This document shows, one piece after another, positions 11,804-21,315 of a stretch of DNA of 64,000 nt. Under the pieces are notes generated by a model. That model was not told where the DNA came from, searched no databases, and was given only the letters and a program-made list of their open reading frames with translations. Each line of letters begins with the position of its first letter. Position 1 is the first letter of the stretch. Source of the DNA: Curvularia clavata (Eukaryota). Both the position numbers and the translations under genes were made by a program. The DNA is taken from the NCBI GenBank assembly GCA_023920165.1, contig CP089279.1:558001-622000 (forward strand), written 5' to 3'.

Positions 11804-13473
11804 TCATGGGACCGTCGATGCTGGCCGCTCATAAGGTGTGGATGGCTGGGGTGGGGAAGGCATAGTTGATCTGCGGTCTCCGTCTTCGGGATCGCGTTTC
11901 AGGCTCTTGATGCTACCCGCGGCACTGTGCTGTGACATTCTGTCCGGGCTCCTCATATCGTGACTTCGTAGATCCGATGGGTCGGATCTTGGCGGGCCTG
12001 CTGCAGGTGCTGATGCTGACGACGCAGTCTCGTCGTCTTGCTGCCGCCGCCGTTGGTACAGCTCCATGTAGCTAAGCCCTTCGCCCTCTCTCTTCATCGA
12101 CCCCGCCATGTCGGGCACAGGCGCCGTCCTGGCACCGCTGACTAAGTCTTCTTCAGATCGTAGTTGGATCTGTGGGAGCGGCTGGCCTAGTTGCGGAGGC
12201 ACACTCGATCGGGAACGAGTGTCTGCCCGCCGCCTACTAAAAGAGCTGTTTCGCCTGCGCCCAATGCCACCATTACCGCCACCAGCGCTGGAGCCACTGT
12301 CTGTGCGGTGGTGGTAGCCGTGTATGGGGCCTTGAGGCATAGGCGGAGGAGGTGCCTGGTGAAGCTGAGGGGGCATCGGCGGTGGGTTCGGCATCAGCTG
12401 GGCGGCGTTTGCGGGAGTAAAGCCATGTGGTGCAGACGCAGGTATGACAGGCACTTGAGAAGGCGAGCTCATGCCTGTTCCCGTTGCAGATGGGTGGAGC
12501 TGAAACACTGGCGCGTTGGCGCGCGCGCTCATCTCTTGCTCCCCCAGCTGCCAGTGCATCGACTCGGCAGAACGCCAGGGAATACCCATCTCTGTAGCAA
12601 CCTTCTGCCACATTTGGTCCTTGAATCTATTTGCCAGAAAAAATCGTCAGTATTTGTTTTTGTTGCCCTTGTGCTGTCGCACGTCTGTGTGAGACTGGTC
12701 TCGTGCGGCCAGCCCGAGAGTGAACAAACACCAAAATCAATGATTGCAGTCTCGGGCCGTCCAAAAGAAACTCGTGTCTTTCCGCCTTGTAGTACGTACC
12801 GAGCATAGAGTCGCGCAAGCTTATTCTTCTTTTCTTCGTCCCAGATGGCCCGCTTTTCCAGGTAATTTTGGTATCGCAGCCGGCACGAGATGGAGCTTCG
12901 TCCAGGTAGTCGCTTCGCAATGTCGTCCCACTTCATTCCCTGGCCCCGCAGTTCAATGGTCAGGTTGTCCTCCTCGGGGGTCCATTTCGACTGTTTCTTC
13001 GCTGGGCTCTCGTCGGGGAGTGGGGTTTGGGAAGCCTGGCGCTTCAGTGTTGATGGGGGAGAAACATTAGTGCCGGCTGGGCTGTTGTGGATGGGCGCGG
13101 ATCCATGGGGTCCGGAATAGAGTTGTCGAAACTGTGGAAGTGCTGGATCATTACGTCGGTGTAGCTCTGAGATTGCAGGTAGAACAGGACCTCCAAGCAT
13201 TGGTGCAGATCCCTTGGGAGCCGATGTGGGTGCCTGGGGAGGGTAGGCAGCCATGGGAGCATAGTGTTGAGGTGCTGTTGCGTAACCACCGGGAGATCCA
13301 GTAGCATAGGCGGGGGATGCCCTTTGGGCGGGGGATTGTGTGTACGCTGACGGTGCCGTGGTGTATCCTCGTGTGGCTCCTGTTGAGTGAGATGCGTTGG
13401 ACACTGAGCTCTTCTTGCTAGCCGGTGACTCGGAGCCCCGCGCTCGGGGCTCGAGAAGAAGATTGATATCCAG
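11804..13473 (-). CDS. Myb/SANT-domain transcription factor; exons 13473-12800 and 12626-11804; start proposed at CUG 13473 (first in-frame AUG is 13254)
   Basis: Myb repeat KQSKWTPEEDNLTIELRGQGMKWDDIAKRLPGRSSISCRLRYQNYL is followed across intron 12799-12627 (GTACGT..CTGAC..TAG) by WDEEKKNKLARLYAR|FKDQMWQKVATEMGIPWRSAESMHW. The gene is secure; the start codon is inferred. Confidence 0.88.
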
Positions 13474-15861
13474 GGTGAACGAAAAGGACCAGCGTCAAGC
13501 CAGCCCATAAAACAGTAGTCGAGTTCGTTTACGTCTCCAAATTCCACCTAGATTCCAAGATTCCCGACGACGAGTAGGCTCCTGGTAGTTGGCGGCGGTA
13601 AGTAAGGAGATCGAAAGAGCCAAGTCCTAGCGGCGGGGTGTTTAAGCAGATGAGGGCGACGACTATCTGCAGAGATGTGTTTGTGTGTATGTAAGGTGAG
13701 TGACGTTGATGGTAAACAACAACGATGACGAAGGGGGGTGGGCGGGAGATGAACAGGAGAGGACAGGCGTGGGAGAGGGAGTGAGGTTCGGATAGACTAA
13801 ATGTGCCGAAGAGGGAACCAAGTAGCCAGTTGCAAAGTACTTTGGATGATTCACGCTCTGAATGGTCGATCGAAGTCGAGCTATTTGGGAGATGGGTCGG
13901 GGCCCGGGGAGCAGGGGGTGAAACAGGCCAACCACCTGGTCTGATGAAAGATGGTCGTGCTGAGCCACTGACTTTTGCAGGTCGAGCAGGTCGGGGAGGA
14001 TAGCGTTGGAGGGATGGTGGATGCGGTCTGGTAGGAGCAAAGTAGGGTCTGAGGGTCTAAGGTACTTTGTCGAGCGAGCATGGGTGCAAATAGAGAGAGT
14101 TAGCGTACGACTGTAATGCTAATAACAGGCATCCTTGCAAGGCCCTGGCTGGCGCCGCATCATCGTCCGCGGTAGGGATAGGGATTCCGGGGGCTTGGGA
14201 TCAGGATGTACCCTTTGCGTCTGTGACTTGACTGACTACGCTGTGCGCTTGACGCCTTGTCGACTCGTGCTGGCGGCGCGCCACATTAACGACCCACAGA
14301 CCACGACGACACCCAAGCTGATCTGATCTAGGGAAGCATGTCTGCCGGAGATTTTAGCGAGCGCCCAAGAAGAAAAAGGACACACGCTCCACGCTCCCCC
14401 CCTCTTACTCAAATTGCAGCTAGCTAGCAGTTGGCTGCTAGTTGCTAGCCTGACACAAGAAGCACGACACCCGTTCTCGCTGGCAGCGGCGCTAGGATGA
14501 CGTGTCTTGATGGTGTTTCTACGTCTTGCTCTGCCCTTCTCTCGCGCAGCTCCTTTTTTTTGCTCGCCCTGCCCTACTGCTCCGCTGCCCTGATCCCAAG
14601 CTTGAGCCGCCGTTGACGACCAGCCGTCACCGCAGCCCTCCTCCAATCGTGGTGACGGCTTCGTATTTTGGCACGCCCCAGACGGTCGGCGCCGGATGTC
14701 ATTTGCTGCCCTCTTGTTTCGTCAGGCCTCAATGCGCGTGCCCAAGACAGGGCTGGCGGCGAGGGCGGCGAGGGCGACAGCGGCGTTTGCAGAGCAACAA
14801 GAGAGCATCGGCTACAAAGCCACCTCTAGGTCACGATCGTCGACAGCACTGCTGGCCAAGGCAGCGAATCAAGCCCAACACAAGCGGTGAACAGCCTCAG
14901 GGATTCGCGCAGACGGTTCGGGTTCGGAGAGCACAAGCGCCATGACATGGAAGATCTGCAGCATGCTCGCCCTGCTCCGGCTATCTGTGACGCCAGGCGC
15001 GTCGCTACCGAAAGCCTTGCGAACGGCTGACTGACTTCATTGTAGCGGTGCATATTTGGTGATGTGTTCACGCCAAAGGGCTGCCAACGGCCACACTGGC
15101 TCCACGTCCTGCAATATCTGCCTCGACGGCTCCGGTCAAGCCCCCCCACTGTGGGCGCCGGGCGATCCATTGGAAAGCATGCCATGCACAGCACAGAGGA
15201 GCGGTGAACTGCGGTGAACTGCCGGCCACGGGCGTGACGTCTAGCTCGCTCGGATGGGGCCCTGGGGCTCTTCGCCGTCGTTGCCTCTCGGCCTGATCCG
15301 TATTCGATTTGCTGTTGTGCTGGCCTTGTGTTTGCCCGAGAGCCACGTTGTATGCCGTATACATTGACTCCCCCATGATGAGGCGCGGCCCTGCCAGGTC
15401 ATCTCTGCGTGCGCCGCGCTGCCAGGCAACCCGTCAGCGCTGTCTAATTGCATCACTGCTTCGCCGTGGCAAGGGTTCTAATGATGCACATGGAAGCGGT
15501 GAGGACTGCCTGAATCCGTGCATGCGTTGTTCCATGCTACTATTCGAGTGAGGTTGGATAGAGCACGCCCCCTCACCCCCCTCCACGCCCCTCCTCTCGG
15601 TCAGTTAGACGTGCATTAGCCATGAACACTGTCCCCGTGCGTCCGTGAACGCTCGAGTCAATCGAAAGCGAAAAAAGGGCTTTTTATCGGCGATACAGTA
15701 AGGCAACCCGATTCCCCTCCCCCCCAAAGGGCGATACGTGTTCGGCATTGCCATGATGGGGTTTCTCCTTGGAGGTCGCCGTCTGGATCCGCAAATGCCT
15801 TTCTGCGCCGACGTCTGCGTCCATGGTGTCACAGCCTCCACGTCCCTTGGTTTCTGCATAC

Positions 15862-15898
15862 GCCGGCCGGCCGGCCGGCCGGTCGGCTGGCTGGCTGC
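15862..15898. repeat. GC-rich (GCCG)n/(GCTG)n microsatellite, partly palindromic
   Basis: gccggccggccggccggccggtcggctggctggctgc in the Myb-TBCB divergent intergenic region. Confidence 0.8.
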
Positions 15899-16702
15899 TT
15901 AGCTAGACGCGGGTGCACACATCAATTTATAGGTGCAAGTGCGGGCGCAGCACCACCGTCTTATCCCATCTCGACATGTGTAGAGGGCCTACGCATTGCA
16001 TCCAAGAAGCGGTGAGACGAGCAAAGGGGCTGGGTGCAAGCGCTGGCTGCTTGTCCACCATAGCCCCATTGGCGTGGCGCGCTCATCTTGTGGCAGAGAA
16101 GTAGTAAGACGTGCGATCCGCCGGCGGCTCTCGCTCGCTGTGTGCCTGTGTGCAAGATTGTGCTGTGTCTTGGCTGAGCGATGATGCTTTCATTTGGCGC
16201 GCGTTCCTCGACGGCTGAGGGACAAGTGACCTGCGCAGAGACATAATTGCCAACGCATGGCGCGGGATCGCCACTGCAGCTCCCACGGTGACGAGTGGAA
16301 TGATTGTGAGCGCGTGGGGTTGACGTGGGCAACGGGCGTTCGTCATGTGTTCTGCGACATTCACTGCAGTTGGAGTCGTGGGGCTTGGCGCTCGCTTGAC
16401 ATGCCCTATCAGGGCAACAACAGCCCTATCCAGTGCCTCTGGCCGGCACAACTCCAACTCATCTCCAGCCAGCCCGCATACCGAGCGGGTCACCTGTCAG
16501 GACTAGACAAGTCATCGTTTGCCGGCGTGGGTTCACTCGCTGCTGCAGGGCTGCTGAGCTACGCGGCGGCCCTATCGCATAACCGCTCCTAGCCTTCTTC
16601 GCAACCATTGGCGCTCCCATCACGGCACCACCTCCAGCAAAGGAAATTCATCTCGCTCTGCTAACTCTGCACTCTCGCCTGCCGGCTAGCTCGCTGCCCA
16701 TC

Positions 16703-19128
16703 ATGTCTTTCCAGGCCGCGGCAGACGTGCCACTCCTCATTAGCTCGCCAAACTCGTCGTCTGAACGCCGCATCTCCCCCTCGTGGTCCATCGCCCATCT
16801 CAAGACACGCCTTGAGCCCATTACGGGCATCCCGGCCGCCTGCCAGCAGTTGTCCTTGCGCGTTGCATCACAGGATCCCGTTGCTCTCGCGGCCTCAGAT
16901 GAAGAAAACACGCAGCTTGCTGCCTTTCCACTGCAGCCGTATGCGGAGATAGCCGTAAGTGCTTCTTCTTCTTATTTACTATCCAGCCCTGTCCTGGACC
17001 AGTTTGAAATGCGGTCCTCTCGAAAGCTGCCACATCTCCTTGCTCTCTCATTCCTCCCGGCTTGGCTTCATACTCCCCTTGAAACTGCTCTACTTACTCA
17101 GTAGGTGCATGCACTGTGTCTTCTCCCCTCTTATTCGCCGCCTACGTACATTGTGTCATGTCCGCATATCCTGTCTTGCCCCGCTATGCACTTTCAATCT
17201 TTGTCAGCCTGCCTATGGTCCAAAACCCATGCTTCGGCTCCTCCGCTATCGCCTGCTCACCCTGAAGCACGGAGCTTTGGATGCTGAGCAGCGCGCGTCT
17301 CCCTGTCTTCATGCTCATCCTCCTGTCCTTTCTTCTCTTATTCTTTCTCTCCTTTTCTTTTTTCCTCGGCGAATCGGGCTTATTGCGCTTTCTCATCTTG
17401 CTGCATGACGCGACCCCTGCACCTACCGTTCAGCTTCATGGTTCTTCTGACAGGGCTATCCGAACAAATCATTGCTCATACATGTGCACTTGTGTTGACA
17501 TGCAATCTATAGGTTGTAGACACGCGCCCTCCCGGTGCACGTATAGACTTCAATGACCTGTCAGCCGTTGAGAAGTATGAAATGCCAGTCGCAGAGTACG
17601 AGCATCGGACCGATAGTGTCCTTGCATGGAAGAAGGCTCAGAAGCTTGGACGATTCGATCCTAATGCTCCTAGCATAGAACAACAAAAGATCCGCGCCTC
17701 TGAGCGTGAAGTAGAGGAGAGAGGTAAGCGCAGCACTCTTTTTCTTTTTTGCATGTTTCAGGCCACACAAACTCGTACGATTGTGGCGACTCTGCTTTGA
17801 AAAAGCAAGTCTGGGAACTTCCATTTTGGCGGGCGACTGCTTGTGCTCAGCCTTTGTCGTTGGAGCAGATGGGACGAACATGCTTCAAACCGTTTACAAG
17901 CCGGCTGCAAATATCCGATTCCGTGGCTCCGTCATAGACAGGTCGCCTCCACGTTGCAGGTTTCATCTTGTCATGAACCATCGACCAGGACGCATGCATG
18001 TCAGACAGCCTGTTTTCTCAAAGCTGACGCCGTCTCACCGAACGCGTCGTACATTGCTACTCTTTTCAGCATGCTGCATGGGGCCCTGGACCCTGTTTGC
18101 CAGGGACCAAACGACAAATACGACTGCGTCTAGACCATTCAATCGACAAAGCACACCTCGAGACAAACACATTCCAAGTTTCGGTATGCTCAATGAGATC
18201 ATTTGCAGCTCTCTCGCTTTAATAATCCCGCCTCGTCTCGCTACCCGTCCCGCTGGGAACTAGGCATCGGGATCGGGAGCCCCGAAACTCAATTCAATCT
18301 TGAACCTGCCAGCCTCATACTCGAGCTTCTCGAGTCTATGAGAAGTTGAATGTCTCAGGCACAGGATCACAGCGAGCGAGTAGTAAGGCTCGTATCAGTT
18401 GACAGGCTAGAGCCTGGAAGCCTTTATGAAGAAAGTGTGTCGCCTGTGCGTTTTCATAACGAACGCCCCATACATCTCAAAAAGACTCGTGCATTACGGC
18501 CTCGCCTGGGAATCCCGTCGGTACGCTTATAGACTGTCGATTACCGACCGCTTCCCCATTTGCATCTCTCGGCCCCTCGCAACACGGCGCTTCCTACATG
18601 TAATCTCCGTGTCAGAGGCAGGTTGGCGACCCAGACCTGCACAACCCGAATCAGTTGCCCAGAGGCATCTCGCTTGATCATCATCTTCACGATTTGGTAT
18701 TTTAACTTCACTATTGGAACGAACTGCATTGGGGGTTGTTGCATGACGCGAGCTCCACCCTTTTTCTCGCTACTGATCAGCAGATCTGGACATACGCTTT
18801 ACTGACTGACCCACACCAATACTTGGAAAGCGATCGCTAACAGATCCTACTAGGTCTGTCAGTATCGAGTCGTGTTCGCCTGCTTCCCGAATCCGACGCA
18901 CGTCGTGGTACAATTTCATACATTGGATTGGTGCCCGAAATTCCCGGCATTGGCGTGTGGGTCGGCGTCACTCTTGATGAGCCGACAGGCAAGAATGATG
19001 GCACAGTCAAGGGCAAGCGATACTTTGAATGCGGCAACAACTATGGCGTGTTTGTGCGCCCTGAGCGATGCGAGGCTGGGGATTTCCCACCGCTCGACAT
19101 GGGTGACGAAGATCTCGAGGAATTGTAA
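16703..19128 (+). CDS. TBCB: Tubulin-folding cofactor B (Alp11/TBCB); exons 16703-16954, 17513-17723, 18854-19128 (245 aa)
   Basis: N-terminal ubiquitin-like domain (ERRISPSWSIAHLKTRLEPITGIP), middle VEKYEMPVAEYEHRTDSVLAWKKAQKLGRF, CAP-Gly with WVGVTLDEPTGKNDG, and acidic tail EEL. Introns 16955-17512 and 17724-18853 restore the frame. Confidence 0.92.
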
Positions 19129-19468
19129 CGTGCGTGATAACCTTCTGATCACGCTACGAGGCAATAAGATTATCTCGATATTATGTCGCGGGTGTGTTCC
19201 CTGTACGACACGGACACTTAATATCGAAATTTATACATGTGCAAAGACGACATGCGTTCTCCGCATGTACATAACAAATGCCTGAACCTCGTCAATGATA
19301 GCAATGTAGCATTGCGTGCATTCTACGGGAATCATACGTTGCGTTTTAGTAGCACAATCATTCATTTTGTGAAACGACGACAGAAATTCCAAGCCTTGAG
19401 ATTTTGTCACCAAATCTCTACAGCTCACACCATCAGCTCGCACACCACATGCTAGCCTAACCATCCAA

Positions 19469-20950
19469 CTACAATGGCAAGACCCACTCGCCCTCATTCT
19501 TTGGTTTCGCCAAGCTACTCTGATCCCTCTTGACAAACTGCCCATATCCCTTCTCACCCACCAGCCCCCCATTATCTCTGTCCCAAACCACCTTCCCCCT
19601 CAAAACCGTATATCTTGGCCACTGCGTCAGCCGCCGCCCTTCAAATGGCGTATAATCCACATCATGATGCAGCATATCGTTCGTCAATAGAAACGGCTGC
19701 ATCTTGCCCTCAGGATACCAAACATTAATATCCGCATCCGACACACCTTCCTTCAGCGCCCCCTTTCTCGGATAAAGCCCATACAGCTTCGCCGGATTGG
19801 CCGATGTCAACTCCACGAACTTTGTGAGCTTAAGTCGCTGCTCGCTGAGTACAAGCGCGAGTCTCGTTTCTATGCCCGGACAACCATTGGGAATGTATTT
19901 GAAATGTCCGTTGGGAAACTCAGGCGAGATGCTGGATTTCTTGCCTGTGGCGCTGTCGTCGTAGCGGAAGGGACAGTGGTCAGATGAGAGGATGGTAAAG
20001 GTGCCGTTTTGCAGTCCGGTCCAGATGACGTCGCAGTCTGCCTCTGTCGCGCGTGGTGGCGGCGAACACACGCATTTTGCGCCTTCGAAACCGGGTTGAT
20101 CAAGGGAGCGCGCGGTCAGGAAGAGGTATTGTGGACAGGTTTCCGCGTAGATGGGGAGACCACGGTCCTGCGCTGCTTTGATATGTGCGGTTGCAGCTGG
20201 AGTGGAAACGTGTACGATGAGGATGGGGGCGTCCATGAATTCGGAGAGGCTGATGGCACGGTAGGTAGCTTCTGTTTCGGCCATGGGAGGATGCGAAGAA
20301 CCGTGGTATTTTGGGGCAAAGAGTTTCTGTTTCTCGAGCTGTGCCGTCATCCAGTCAATTACTTGGCCATTTTCGGCGTGGATCATGGTCGTGATGCCTT
20401 GTCTTCGCGCTTCGAGGAGTACGTCGAGGATTTGGCCGTCGTGCAGCTGGAGGGCCTCGTACGTCATGTAGATTTTCAGAGAAGAAATGCCTTCGGAGCG
20501 GAGGGTTTTGAATTCTGAGAGTGCTTTTTCAGAGGGATTGCCAACAAGCAGGTGGAAGGAGTAATCGATGTAGCAATTGTCTTTTGCCCGCTCGTGAGTC
20601 GCTGCTAACGTATCGAGAAGCGTGTCTTCAGTCTTCTTTTGCGGAGCAAACGTGACCATGGTTGTTGTGCCACCGCATACAGCTGATCGACTGCCTGTCT
20701 CGTAGTTGTCTGCTGTTGACCCTTTGCCAAATAATGGAGGCTCTTGGAGATGGACATGGGCATCGACACCTCCAGGCATCACGTATCCGCCCTCGGCATC
20801 TATTGTCTTTGCTGCATTTGTATTCTTAAAGCCCCCTCTTGGAGCCACCTTTGCAATCTTCTCATCCTTGATGGCGATATCCAGCTCTTGAGTATCGGTC
20901 TCGGAAACCACTATTCCATTGATGATGAGCAAATCATATTCGGTCGCCAT
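19469..20950 (-). CDS. Dihydropyrimidinase / D-hydantoinase (amidohydrolase superfamily), intronless
   Basis: MPGGVDAHVH metal motif, SLKIYMTY carboxylated Lys, IHAENG, IVHVS, ETCPQYL, SSDHCPF and NPAKLYGL. Confidence 0.93.
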   Translation of the reverse strand: MATEYDLLIINGIVVSETDTQELDIAIKDEKIAKVAPRGGFKNTNAAKTIDAEGGYVMPGGVDAHVHLQEPPLFGKGSTADNYETGSRSAVCGGTTTMVTFAPQKKTEDTLLDTLAATHERAKDNCYIDYSFHLLVGNPSEKALSEFKTLRSEGISSLKIYMTYEALQLHDGQILDVLLEARRQGITTMIHAENGQVIDWMTAQLEKQKLFAPKYHGSSHPPMAETEATYRAISLSEFMDAPILIVHVSTPAATAHIKAAQDRGLPIYAETCPQYLFLTARSLDQPGFEGAKCVCSPPPRATEADCDVIWTGLQNGTFTILSSDHCPFRYDDSATGKKSSISPEFPNGHFKYIPNGCPGIETRLALVLSEQRLKLTKFVELTSANPAKLYGLYPRKGALKEGVSDADINVWYPEGKMQPFLLTNDMLHHDVDYTPFEGRRLTQWPRYTVLRGKVVWDRDNGGLVGEKGYGQFVKRDQSSLAKPKNEGEWVLPL

Positions 20951-21315
20951 TGGGTTTTAGCGTTTCTTCTAATCCTTGAACCAAACGACAAGAGAAATTT
21001 AATTGATAGAAACGTTTGCAGATTCATATTGCCGGCTTCATGGTAATGACAAGGGTACTAGTCCAGGATAGTGAGGTGCGTATCTTAACCCCTCACTGGC
21101 ACTGCCCCACCTGCCATCCCCTCGTCTTCCGTGTCTTATCAGCGGGTCGGCGCATGTTCACGGATTCGAGTGACAAAGGCATATCCAGGGGTTTTGTACA
21201 GTCATAAACTGTTGTCATACTAACAAATAAGCGCTATTTGGGAGTTATACACTGGTAAGAGCTCAGTCACCATTATATATCTCCTGTTAAGCCACAACAC
21301 CACCAAGTCTGTACA

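Follow-up and report, generated by a model that had tools for sequence, protein, structure and literature searches.

In budding yeast, YRA1 and DBP2 carry long autoregulatory introns, and RPL30-type feedback is found in the same organism. Zipper stems in other long yeast introns bring the 5' splice site and the branch point together. Intronic enhancers and conserved non-coding elements are familiar from animals and plants; to our knowledge, conserved intronic elements have rarely been described in filamentous fungi, whose introns are seldom long enough to contain them. Here we describe the second intron (intron 2, 1130 nt) of the gene for tubulin-folding cofactor B (TBCB) in a 64,000-nucleotide stretch of the Curvularia clavata genome (contig CP089279.1, positions 558,001 to 622,000), called the window below. 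We consider it probable, taking the reading as a whole, that this is an authentic U2-type intron whose RNA folds no better than shuffled sequence, whose length and a few short blocks are conserved, and which works as a cis-regulatory long intron. The last part of that reading, judged by itself, is tentative.

TBCB resembles the yeast genes in several respects. Like them it has an exceptionally long intron that is kept in related species, its product is harmful in excess, and incomplete splicing is the proposed throttle. Unlike TBCB, the yeast genes have a demonstrated feedback from the protein to its own pre-mRNA, and they belong to a yeast rather than a filamentous fungus; we know of no RNA-binding activity of TBCB. 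The comparison with zipper stems is similar. Intron 2 is also a long fungal intron, and in its global minimum free energy (MFE) structure the 7 nt at the 5' end are paired with a stretch close to the 3' end, but its folding energy shows no excess over shuffles, no conserved complementary pair was found in it, and a stem at its 3' splice site is specific to the window. The blocks in TBCB are short, invariant, fixed in position and confined to one strand, as are the intronic elements of animals and plants; they are known here from sequence alone and may act at the level of DNA or of RNA.

The nearest fungal cases are regulated intron retention combined with nonsense-mediated decay (NMD) in the cellulase genes of cellulolytic fungi (PMC9118705) and in Cryptococcus (PMC5006051). 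The likeness lies in a retained intron that brings a premature stop codon, in unspliced transcripts beside spliced ones, and in a dose-sensitive gene. The differences are that decay and regulation at TBCB are our proposal, and that the TBCB intron is about 10-20 times as long as typical retained introns of fungi, with a length conserved in its clade. No printed description of a fungal TBCB intron was found in open-access text, some of which was judged by title.

The host gene has three exons on the plus strand and, judged by its domains, is the TBCB gene (TBCB, Alp11 or Alf1) of a filamentous fungus. Its open reading frames (ORFs) add up to 84 + 70 + 1 split + 90 codons. Together with the Pfam matches they give an N-terminal ubiquitin-like (Ubl) domain, a central linker and a C-terminal CAP-Gly domain in about 245 residues, which is the architecture expected of a TBCB protein. 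The same Ubl and CAP-Gly layout is described in PMC3442407, which also backs a statement in a preliminary description of this locus, made by a model from the sequence alone, that excess TBCB destabilises microtubules.

Intron 2 starts with GTAAGC at 17724, has CTAAC at 18837-18841 and ends with TAG at 18851-18853, as a U2-type intron should. Its exact removal (1130 nt, GT..AG) is seen in assembled RNA contigs of three of the four public sequencing runs (X6, X15 and X16), and an equally exact GT..AG joint removes the 558 nt of intron 1 in X3, X6 and X15. The borders given in the preliminary description, 17724 and 18853, are therefore confirmed by both the splice signals and the spliced joints. 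It had also placed the CAP-Gly domain beyond intron 2 and the stop upon retention at 17800; exon 3 does match PF01302 (E 8e-26), and an in-frame TGA lies at 17798-17800.

Evidence for a conserved intron length can be provided by related genes. Metagenome contigs were scanned with the peptide of exon 3 as query, giving 52 loci in which orthologues were mapped by tblastn of the three exons and a check of splice signals. Eight distinct full-length orthologues were kept: L002 (identical to L003 and L004), L005 (identical to L006), L007, L008, L010, L011, L015 and L019. Their amino-acid identity to the window gene is 80-93%. All eight have intron 2 at the same position, with lengths of 679, 959, 1054, 1195, 1045, 1116, 1465 and 1343 nt, and all eight have intron 1 at the same position, with 344-647 nt. 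Both introns carry GT..CTRAC..AG in every one of them. In five partial contigs, intron 2 measures at least 431-1136 nt. The preliminary description had named a short intron in sister taxa as an observation that would speak against it; intron 2 is long in every full-length relative.

Short introns are found further away. The more distant L017 has introns of 126 and 101 nt at these positions, L020 has 290 and about 111 nt, and in L018 exon 3 follows exon 2 directly. Among the long-intron lineages, exon nucleotide identity is 0.70-0.83 for most pairs, and the proportion of synonymous differences (pS) in exon 3 is 0.66-0.81. Synonymous sites are thus saturated, even against the closest relative, L001 (0.67).

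The usual intron size in such genomes is far smaller. Neurospora introns peak at 60-69 bp (PMC4317165). Within the window, the neighbouring GH85 gene is made of two ORFs about 40 nt apart that meet at Pfam profile positions 140/141. A survey of splice signals and ORF joins in the window gave 20 candidates of at most 150 nt, of which the credible ones are 45-91 nt long; the same crude survey gave 167 candidates above 400 nt, mostly chance joins of ORFs. Intron 2 has roughly 10-20 times the usual intron size of filamentous ascomycetes. On this comparison of sequences, the lengths of the TBCB introns are non-random: both are long in every related lineage examined, despite saturated synonymous sites.

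The main rival to a cis-regulatory long intron is a neutral one. An ancestral insertion or expansion would have enlarged both TBCB introns in the ancestor of the clade, and the length would persist because deletions are rare or weakly selected. The blocks would then act in transcription, as an intronic enhancer or as promoter-proximal sites, or have nothing to do with splicing, and the unspliced RNA would be ordinary pre-mRNA. The composition of intron 2, which equals the window average, fits this explanation. The lengths fit it less well, since none of the eight full-length and none of the five partial lineages has shrunk toward the usual size, despite saturated synonymous sites and evident turnover by insertions and deletions (indels), and since both TBCB introns are long while the neighbouring gene's intron is short. 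We regard neutrality as possible, though not the likely outcome.

A different explanation was put forward in the preliminary description, which took intron 2 for a densely base-paired and hitherto undescribed RNA. In that case it would hold a large functional fold, serving as a splicing switch or a stable intronic RNA that senses the state of tubulin. Folding energies were compared with those of dinucleotide shuffles, 30 for the whole intron and 100 for each 120-nt window (step 40). The whole intron has an MFE of -326.3 kcal/mol on the plus strand against a shuffle mean of -332.4 (standard deviation 8.1), which gives a z of +0.76; 24 of the 30 shuffles fold as well or better. On the minus strand z is -0.19. 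The 26 windows of 120 nt have a mean z of +0.21 (plus) and +0.06 (minus). The lowest window value, -2.12, belongs to 18284-18403, and every other window is at -1.25 or above.

The listed hairpins themselves exist: all ten arm pairs that were checked were found where the preliminary description had placed them. Seven segments cut tightly around them have z values of -0.90, -0.33, -0.66, -1.82, -1.63, -1.74 and -2.16, which are unremarkable because the segments were chosen for containing a hairpin and are biased toward low z. With values near zero for the whole intron and its windows, and unremarkable ones for the hairpin segments, base pairing beyond chance did not hold up.

Intron 2 does have a mild excess of very short inverted repeats. 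Inverted-repeat 5-mers with loops of at most 120 nt number 165 against an expected 124.6 +/- 12.9, a count reached by none of 300 shuffles, and 6-mers number 47 against 31.8, reached by 9 of 300. In a separate set of shuffles the excess of 5-6-mers has a z of about 2.5, and just one of 56 equal-sized tiles of the window has a z of 2 or more. The excess is gone at 7-mers and 8-mers, brings no lower folding energy, and is not reproduced in the eight related introns, where the 5-mer z runs from -2.55 to +2.19.

Orthologous introns behave in the same way as intron 2 itself. The mean window z in the eight relatives lies between -0.26 and +0.31, and 3 of 135 windows fall below -2. RNAalifold on about 200 aligned columns around the conserved island described below gave -10.7 kcal/mol (plus) and -12.3 (minus), with a positive, that is penalising, covariation term. 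Tests of covariation with two to five sequences are low in power. One pair of a CGG..CCG hairpin in the island is changed on both sides in two of five sequences. When the MFE structure of 17870-18350 is laid on L001, 80 of its 137 pairs can form, mostly with both sides unchanged; among the 74 changed pairs 17 still pair and 57 break. The 17 of 74 are no better than the 37-49 of 137 obtained with partners slid by 1-3 columns, which means that substitutions in L001 disrupt predicted pairs as often as chance would.

Individual hairpins fare no better. The low-z hairpin CTCATACTCGAG..CTCGAGTCTATGAG, which lies in the island, reads CCTCATTCTCCAGCTTCATTCGTC in L008 and L015 and is not a palindrome there. 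The GCCACA arm that faces a conserved TGTGGC is absent from the relatives in an alignment of nine lineages. A 12-nt stem over the branch point and 3' splice site (18800-18811/18853-18864, 92% complementary) was also considered and set aside: it has a duplex z of -3.9 in the window, against -2.1 to +1.5 in 13 relatives, is not conserved, and is probably due to chance or specific to the strain. Pairing of GCCACA in intron 1 with TGTGGC in intron 2 was rejected, as changes in L011 and L019 are uncompensated.

Searches with Rfam 15, whose families include riboswitches, snoRNAs and telomerase RNA, gave no match inside intron 2 at E<=10 and no match at the gathering score in 11 related loci. Hairpins like those of intron 2 can be found in any 1.1-kb sequence of 51% G+C, and the ones listed lack conservation. 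The inventory of real inverted repeats, the 5-mer excess, the one window at z -2.1 and the single pair changed on both sides are what can be said for a structured RNA. Energies that match or exceed the means of the shuffles on both strands, in the whole intron as in its windows and its orthologues, together with the broken pairs, the missing arm, the lack of covariation and the empty Rfam search, make it highly improbable. Windowed z-scores had been set beforehand as the test, and because they came out near zero the structured-RNA reading is refuted by its author's own standard. The failure is instructive, since a kilobase of balanced composition will show a dozen hairpins of 6-8 bp to the eye.

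A long intron in a fungus may also be a mobile or formerly mobile element, such as an introner-like element, a miniature inverted-repeat transposable element (MITE) or a transposon remnant. Introner-like elements are longer than regular introns, and intron 2 is unusually long for a fungus. A second copy of the intron is absent from the window, and the island occurs nowhere else in the 52 related loci. Intron 2 has no terminal inverted repeats and no long direct repeats, and its eight ORFs have no transposase or other Pfam domain; the preliminary description had likewise seen neither terminal inverted repeats nor a credible ORF. By thresholds quoted from general knowledge it lacks the dinucleotide skew of repeat-induced point mutation (RIP). 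It shares its position with the short introns of distant lineages, and it folds no more stably than shuffles. Judged by the window and the related loci, such an origin is scarcely credible.

Between lineages, the greater part of intron 2 resists alignment. The share covered by blastn is 0-15% for distant pairs and 29-55% for the two closest. Position-free conservation of 9-mers is close to the shuffle null, whose maxima reach 4-5 of the eight relatives, and given this null only aligned blocks are trusted as conserved. A few short linear blocks within the otherwise unalignable intron are its second non-random feature. The first of them is the 14-nt motif CGTACGATTGTGGC near the 5' end, which is recognisable in most lineages. 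For this motif, GTACGATTGT is found in five of the eight relatives, and there is an exact match of 13 nt with L007.

The largest block, 17878-18310, is 70.6% identical to L001, and the last 100 nt are about 85% identical, while the synonymous sites of exon 3 are about 33% identical between the same two sequences; this counts against a neutral intron. Overlapping the end of this block is an island of about 110 nt (18231-18341). Searched for with an nhmmer profile of five sequences, it appears in the window (E 2e-26) and in L001, L008, L015 and L019 (E 5e-26 to 2e-39), and with E 0.009 in L007. The core GCCACCAGCCTCA is also present in L005. L008 and L015 share an exact match of 32 nt in the island, and the longest exact match in their exons is 22 nt. 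The profile finds the island at the orthologous place only, with no second copy in the window or in the 52 related loci.

Within the island, the CGG and CCG triplets (18270-18290) are invariant and are spaced by 11 nt in the window, L001 and L008, by 13 in L015 and by 16 in L019; an invariant CCGAAAC follows. Presumably the triplets resemble sites of fungal zinc-cluster factors. Invariant CGG and CCG with a variable spacer would fit a DNA binding site equally well. The neutral alternative can draw on the same observation, as invariant runs of 8-15 bases and CGG..CCG look like DNA binding sites. Three conserved motifs (17026-17035, 17782-17787 and 18308-18319) hold GCCAC(A), once as its reverse complement.

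The conserved block could also belong to an RNA of its own, a small or long non-coding or antisense transcript made from 17878-18341. The block is conserved above synonymous sites in the comparison with L001, and the island is found in 4-6 lineages. Intronic RNA contigs are present, there is no conserved ORF, Pfam is empty, and tblastx matches fall in several frames at once. Against such a transcript, Rfam is empty at E<=10, the aligned island shows no conserved motif of the C/D-box type, and there is no thermodynamic or covariation signal. An intronic contig from run X15 covers 18424-18616, outside the conserved block, and contigs cannot show strand or ends. We therefore think an intron-hosted transcript improbable.

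Intron 1 contains conserved elements too, and these are sharper than those of intron 2. The exact 10-mer GCTGCCACAT occurs once in the window (17026-17035). It is found exactly, and once, in intron 1 of six of the eight distinct relatives, and the other two are one base off. It always lies on the plus strand, 72-100 nt after the 5' splice site. A further conserved element of intron 1 is located at 17462-17477, and the sole tandem array found, a CT-rich repeat of 15 nt, is in this intron as well. The frame of exon 1 stays open for 50 codons into intron 1 (16955-17104, with the stop at 17102-17104). Retention of intron 1 would append a tail of 50 residues, which is not conserved as protein. The coordinates of the gene and of its conserved elements are collected in Table 1.

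Table 1. Parts of the TBCB gene and conserved elements in its introns, in positions of the window.
Feature	Position	Strand	Basis
TBCB exon 1, 84 codons, ubiquitin-like domain	16703..16954	+	ORF frame; PF14560 Ubiquitin_2 E 4e-18; RNA joint 16954>17513 in X3, X6, X15
TBCB intron 1, 558 nt, GTAAGT..TAG, folding z -1.03	16955..17512	+	joint skipping 558 nt in 3 of 4 runs
Conserved element CAGCCCTGTCCTGGA	16984..16998	+	7 of 8 relatives, at most 1 mismatch per 9-mer
Conserved element AAGCTGCCACATCTC, core GCTGCCACAT	17024..17038	+	at most 1 mismatch in 8 of 8 relatives
TBCB exon 2, 211 nt, linker or coiled-coil region	17513..17723	+	ORF frame; tblastn 80-93% to relatives; RNA joints on both sides
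TBCB intron 2, 1130 nt, U2-type GT-AG	17724..18853	+	sequence; joint skipping 1130 nt in X6, X15, X16
Conserved 14-nt motif CGTACGATTGTGGC in the 5' part of intron 2, overlapping the TGTGGC arm of the preliminary description	17774..17787	+	alignment of the first 100 nt, 9 lineages
In-frame TGA reached upon retention of intron 2; product without CAP-Gly	17798..17800	+	ORF 17513..17800
Block alignable with L001, 70.6% over 442 columns	17878..18310	+	blastn E 1e-40
Conserved island, about 110 nt: CCCGTCCCGCTGGGA, CGG..CCG, CCGAAAC, GCCAGCCTCAT	18231..18341	+	nhmmer
CTAAC, branch-point consensus 13 nt upstream of the 3' splice site	18837..18841	+	sequence; CTRAC at the same place in relatives
TBCB exon 3, CAP-Gly domain, stop TAA 19126-19128	18854..19128	+	PF01302 CAP_GLY E 8e-26; ORF

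RNA contigs show an unspliced form of TBCB beside the spliced one. In X6, a contig of 1186 nt (17696-18881) spans both borders of intron 2 at a depth of 38.4. The contig with the spliced junction has a depth of 130.6, and the exon-2 contig has 174.8, nearly as much as those two added together. X3 gives a single contig of 1811 nt in which exon 2, intron 2 and exon 3 are continuous. The metatranscriptome X15 gives the intronic contig mentioned above, of 193 nt. An unspliced form that carries a premature stop and accompanies the spliced form is what control by unproductive splicing predicts, and it is found here, with carry-over of DNA possible. Runs X3 and X6 do contain RNA, as their spliced joints show. 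Stretches without contig cover prove nothing; these are X3 beyond 19323, the introns in X16, and the joint of exons 2 and 3 in X3.

Two further splicing products were considered and rejected. For a cassette exon or poison exon, placed either in the island or at 18070, no contig contains a joint. A mini-intron ending in AG directly before CTGCCACAT likewise has no joint in the contigs, and its AG is missing in two of nine lineages.

X3 and X6 differ from the window at 16660, 17294, 17941, 18243 and 18541 and by a CTT insertion after 16961. All six differences lie in introns or the 5' leader, with three of them in intron 2, and the 738 coding nucleotides are identical.

From these observations a mechanism can be proposed for a cis-regulatory long intron. 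In a genome tuned to introns of about 60 nt, an intron of 1130 nt may be spliced slowly or incompletely. The unspliced transcript stops at the TGA at 17798-17800 and therefore would give no CAP-Gly protein. It would probably be degraded, and the cell would in this way limit the amount of a protein that does harm when overproduced. Factors that govern splicing or transcription may bind at the conserved linear blocks.

The preliminary description had suggested that the intron limits cofactor B through its splicing. That part of its proposal stands as a possibility, being in line with the length in eight of eight relatives, the linear blocks, the unspliced contigs, the stop upon retention and the published effect of excess TBCB on microtubules; the structured RNA to which it assigned the task does not stand. 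The most specific version, in which the two oversized introns set the dose of TBCB by slow splicing while GCTGCCACAT, CGTACGATTGTGGC and the island at 18231-18341 recruit tuning factors, possibly according to the status of microtubules or tubulin, is speculative, and we would not expect all of it to be correct. If it were true, the gene would have a conserved throttle on a tubulin chaperone that depends on intron length.

Several points weigh against a regulatory role of the long intron. The intron contigs establish the presence of an unspliced form and not the level of retention. Contig depth is one figure per contig and cannot rank the parts of a gene, and the RNA label of X3 and X6 was guessed, so that although their joints prove RNA to be present, DNA may have been carried over. 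The oligo-dT run X16 yields the spliced form only. The relatives are metagenome contigs, and the depth of the clade is gauged by sequence divergence alone. Conservation of length could be inertia. In conservation, intron 2 falls behind both intron 1 and the upstream region: among the closer pairs, 72-100% of intron 1 and 85-100% of the upstream kilobase can be aligned. The mild excess of 5-6-nt inverted repeats is a further point.

The lower conservation of intron 2 also counts in favour of neutrality, which further gains from the unalignable bulk of intron 2 in distant pairs and from the comparison of X3 and X6 with the window, where the 1130 nt of intron 2 hold three differences and the coding exons are identical, as expected of unconstrained sequence.

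Whichever explanation applies, TBCB has kept two introns of 5-20 times the normal size, with a few invariant blocks inside, in lineages so diverged that their synonymous sites are saturated. Should the length or the blocks prove important, the gene would offer a clean model, confined to one locus, of intron-length-dependent dosage control in filamentous fungi. If neither matters, it would be a good case for the persistence of long neutral sequence in compact genomes.

The surroundings of the gene differ on its two sides. A tblastx comparison of the window with five related loci, too noisy for intron lengths, shows synteny upstream and none downstream. Synteny stops directly after the TBCB stop codon (19129-21000), and 0-2% of the downstream sequence is alignable in related loci. 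A convergent amidohydrolase gene on the minus strand (19469-20956) has no counterpart 3' of TBCB in these loci. Upstream, the region 12500-16500 is conserved with the relatives at the nucleotide level, in several tblastx frames at once. An ORF with a Myb domain is found there on the minus strand (12529-13491), divergent from TBCB.

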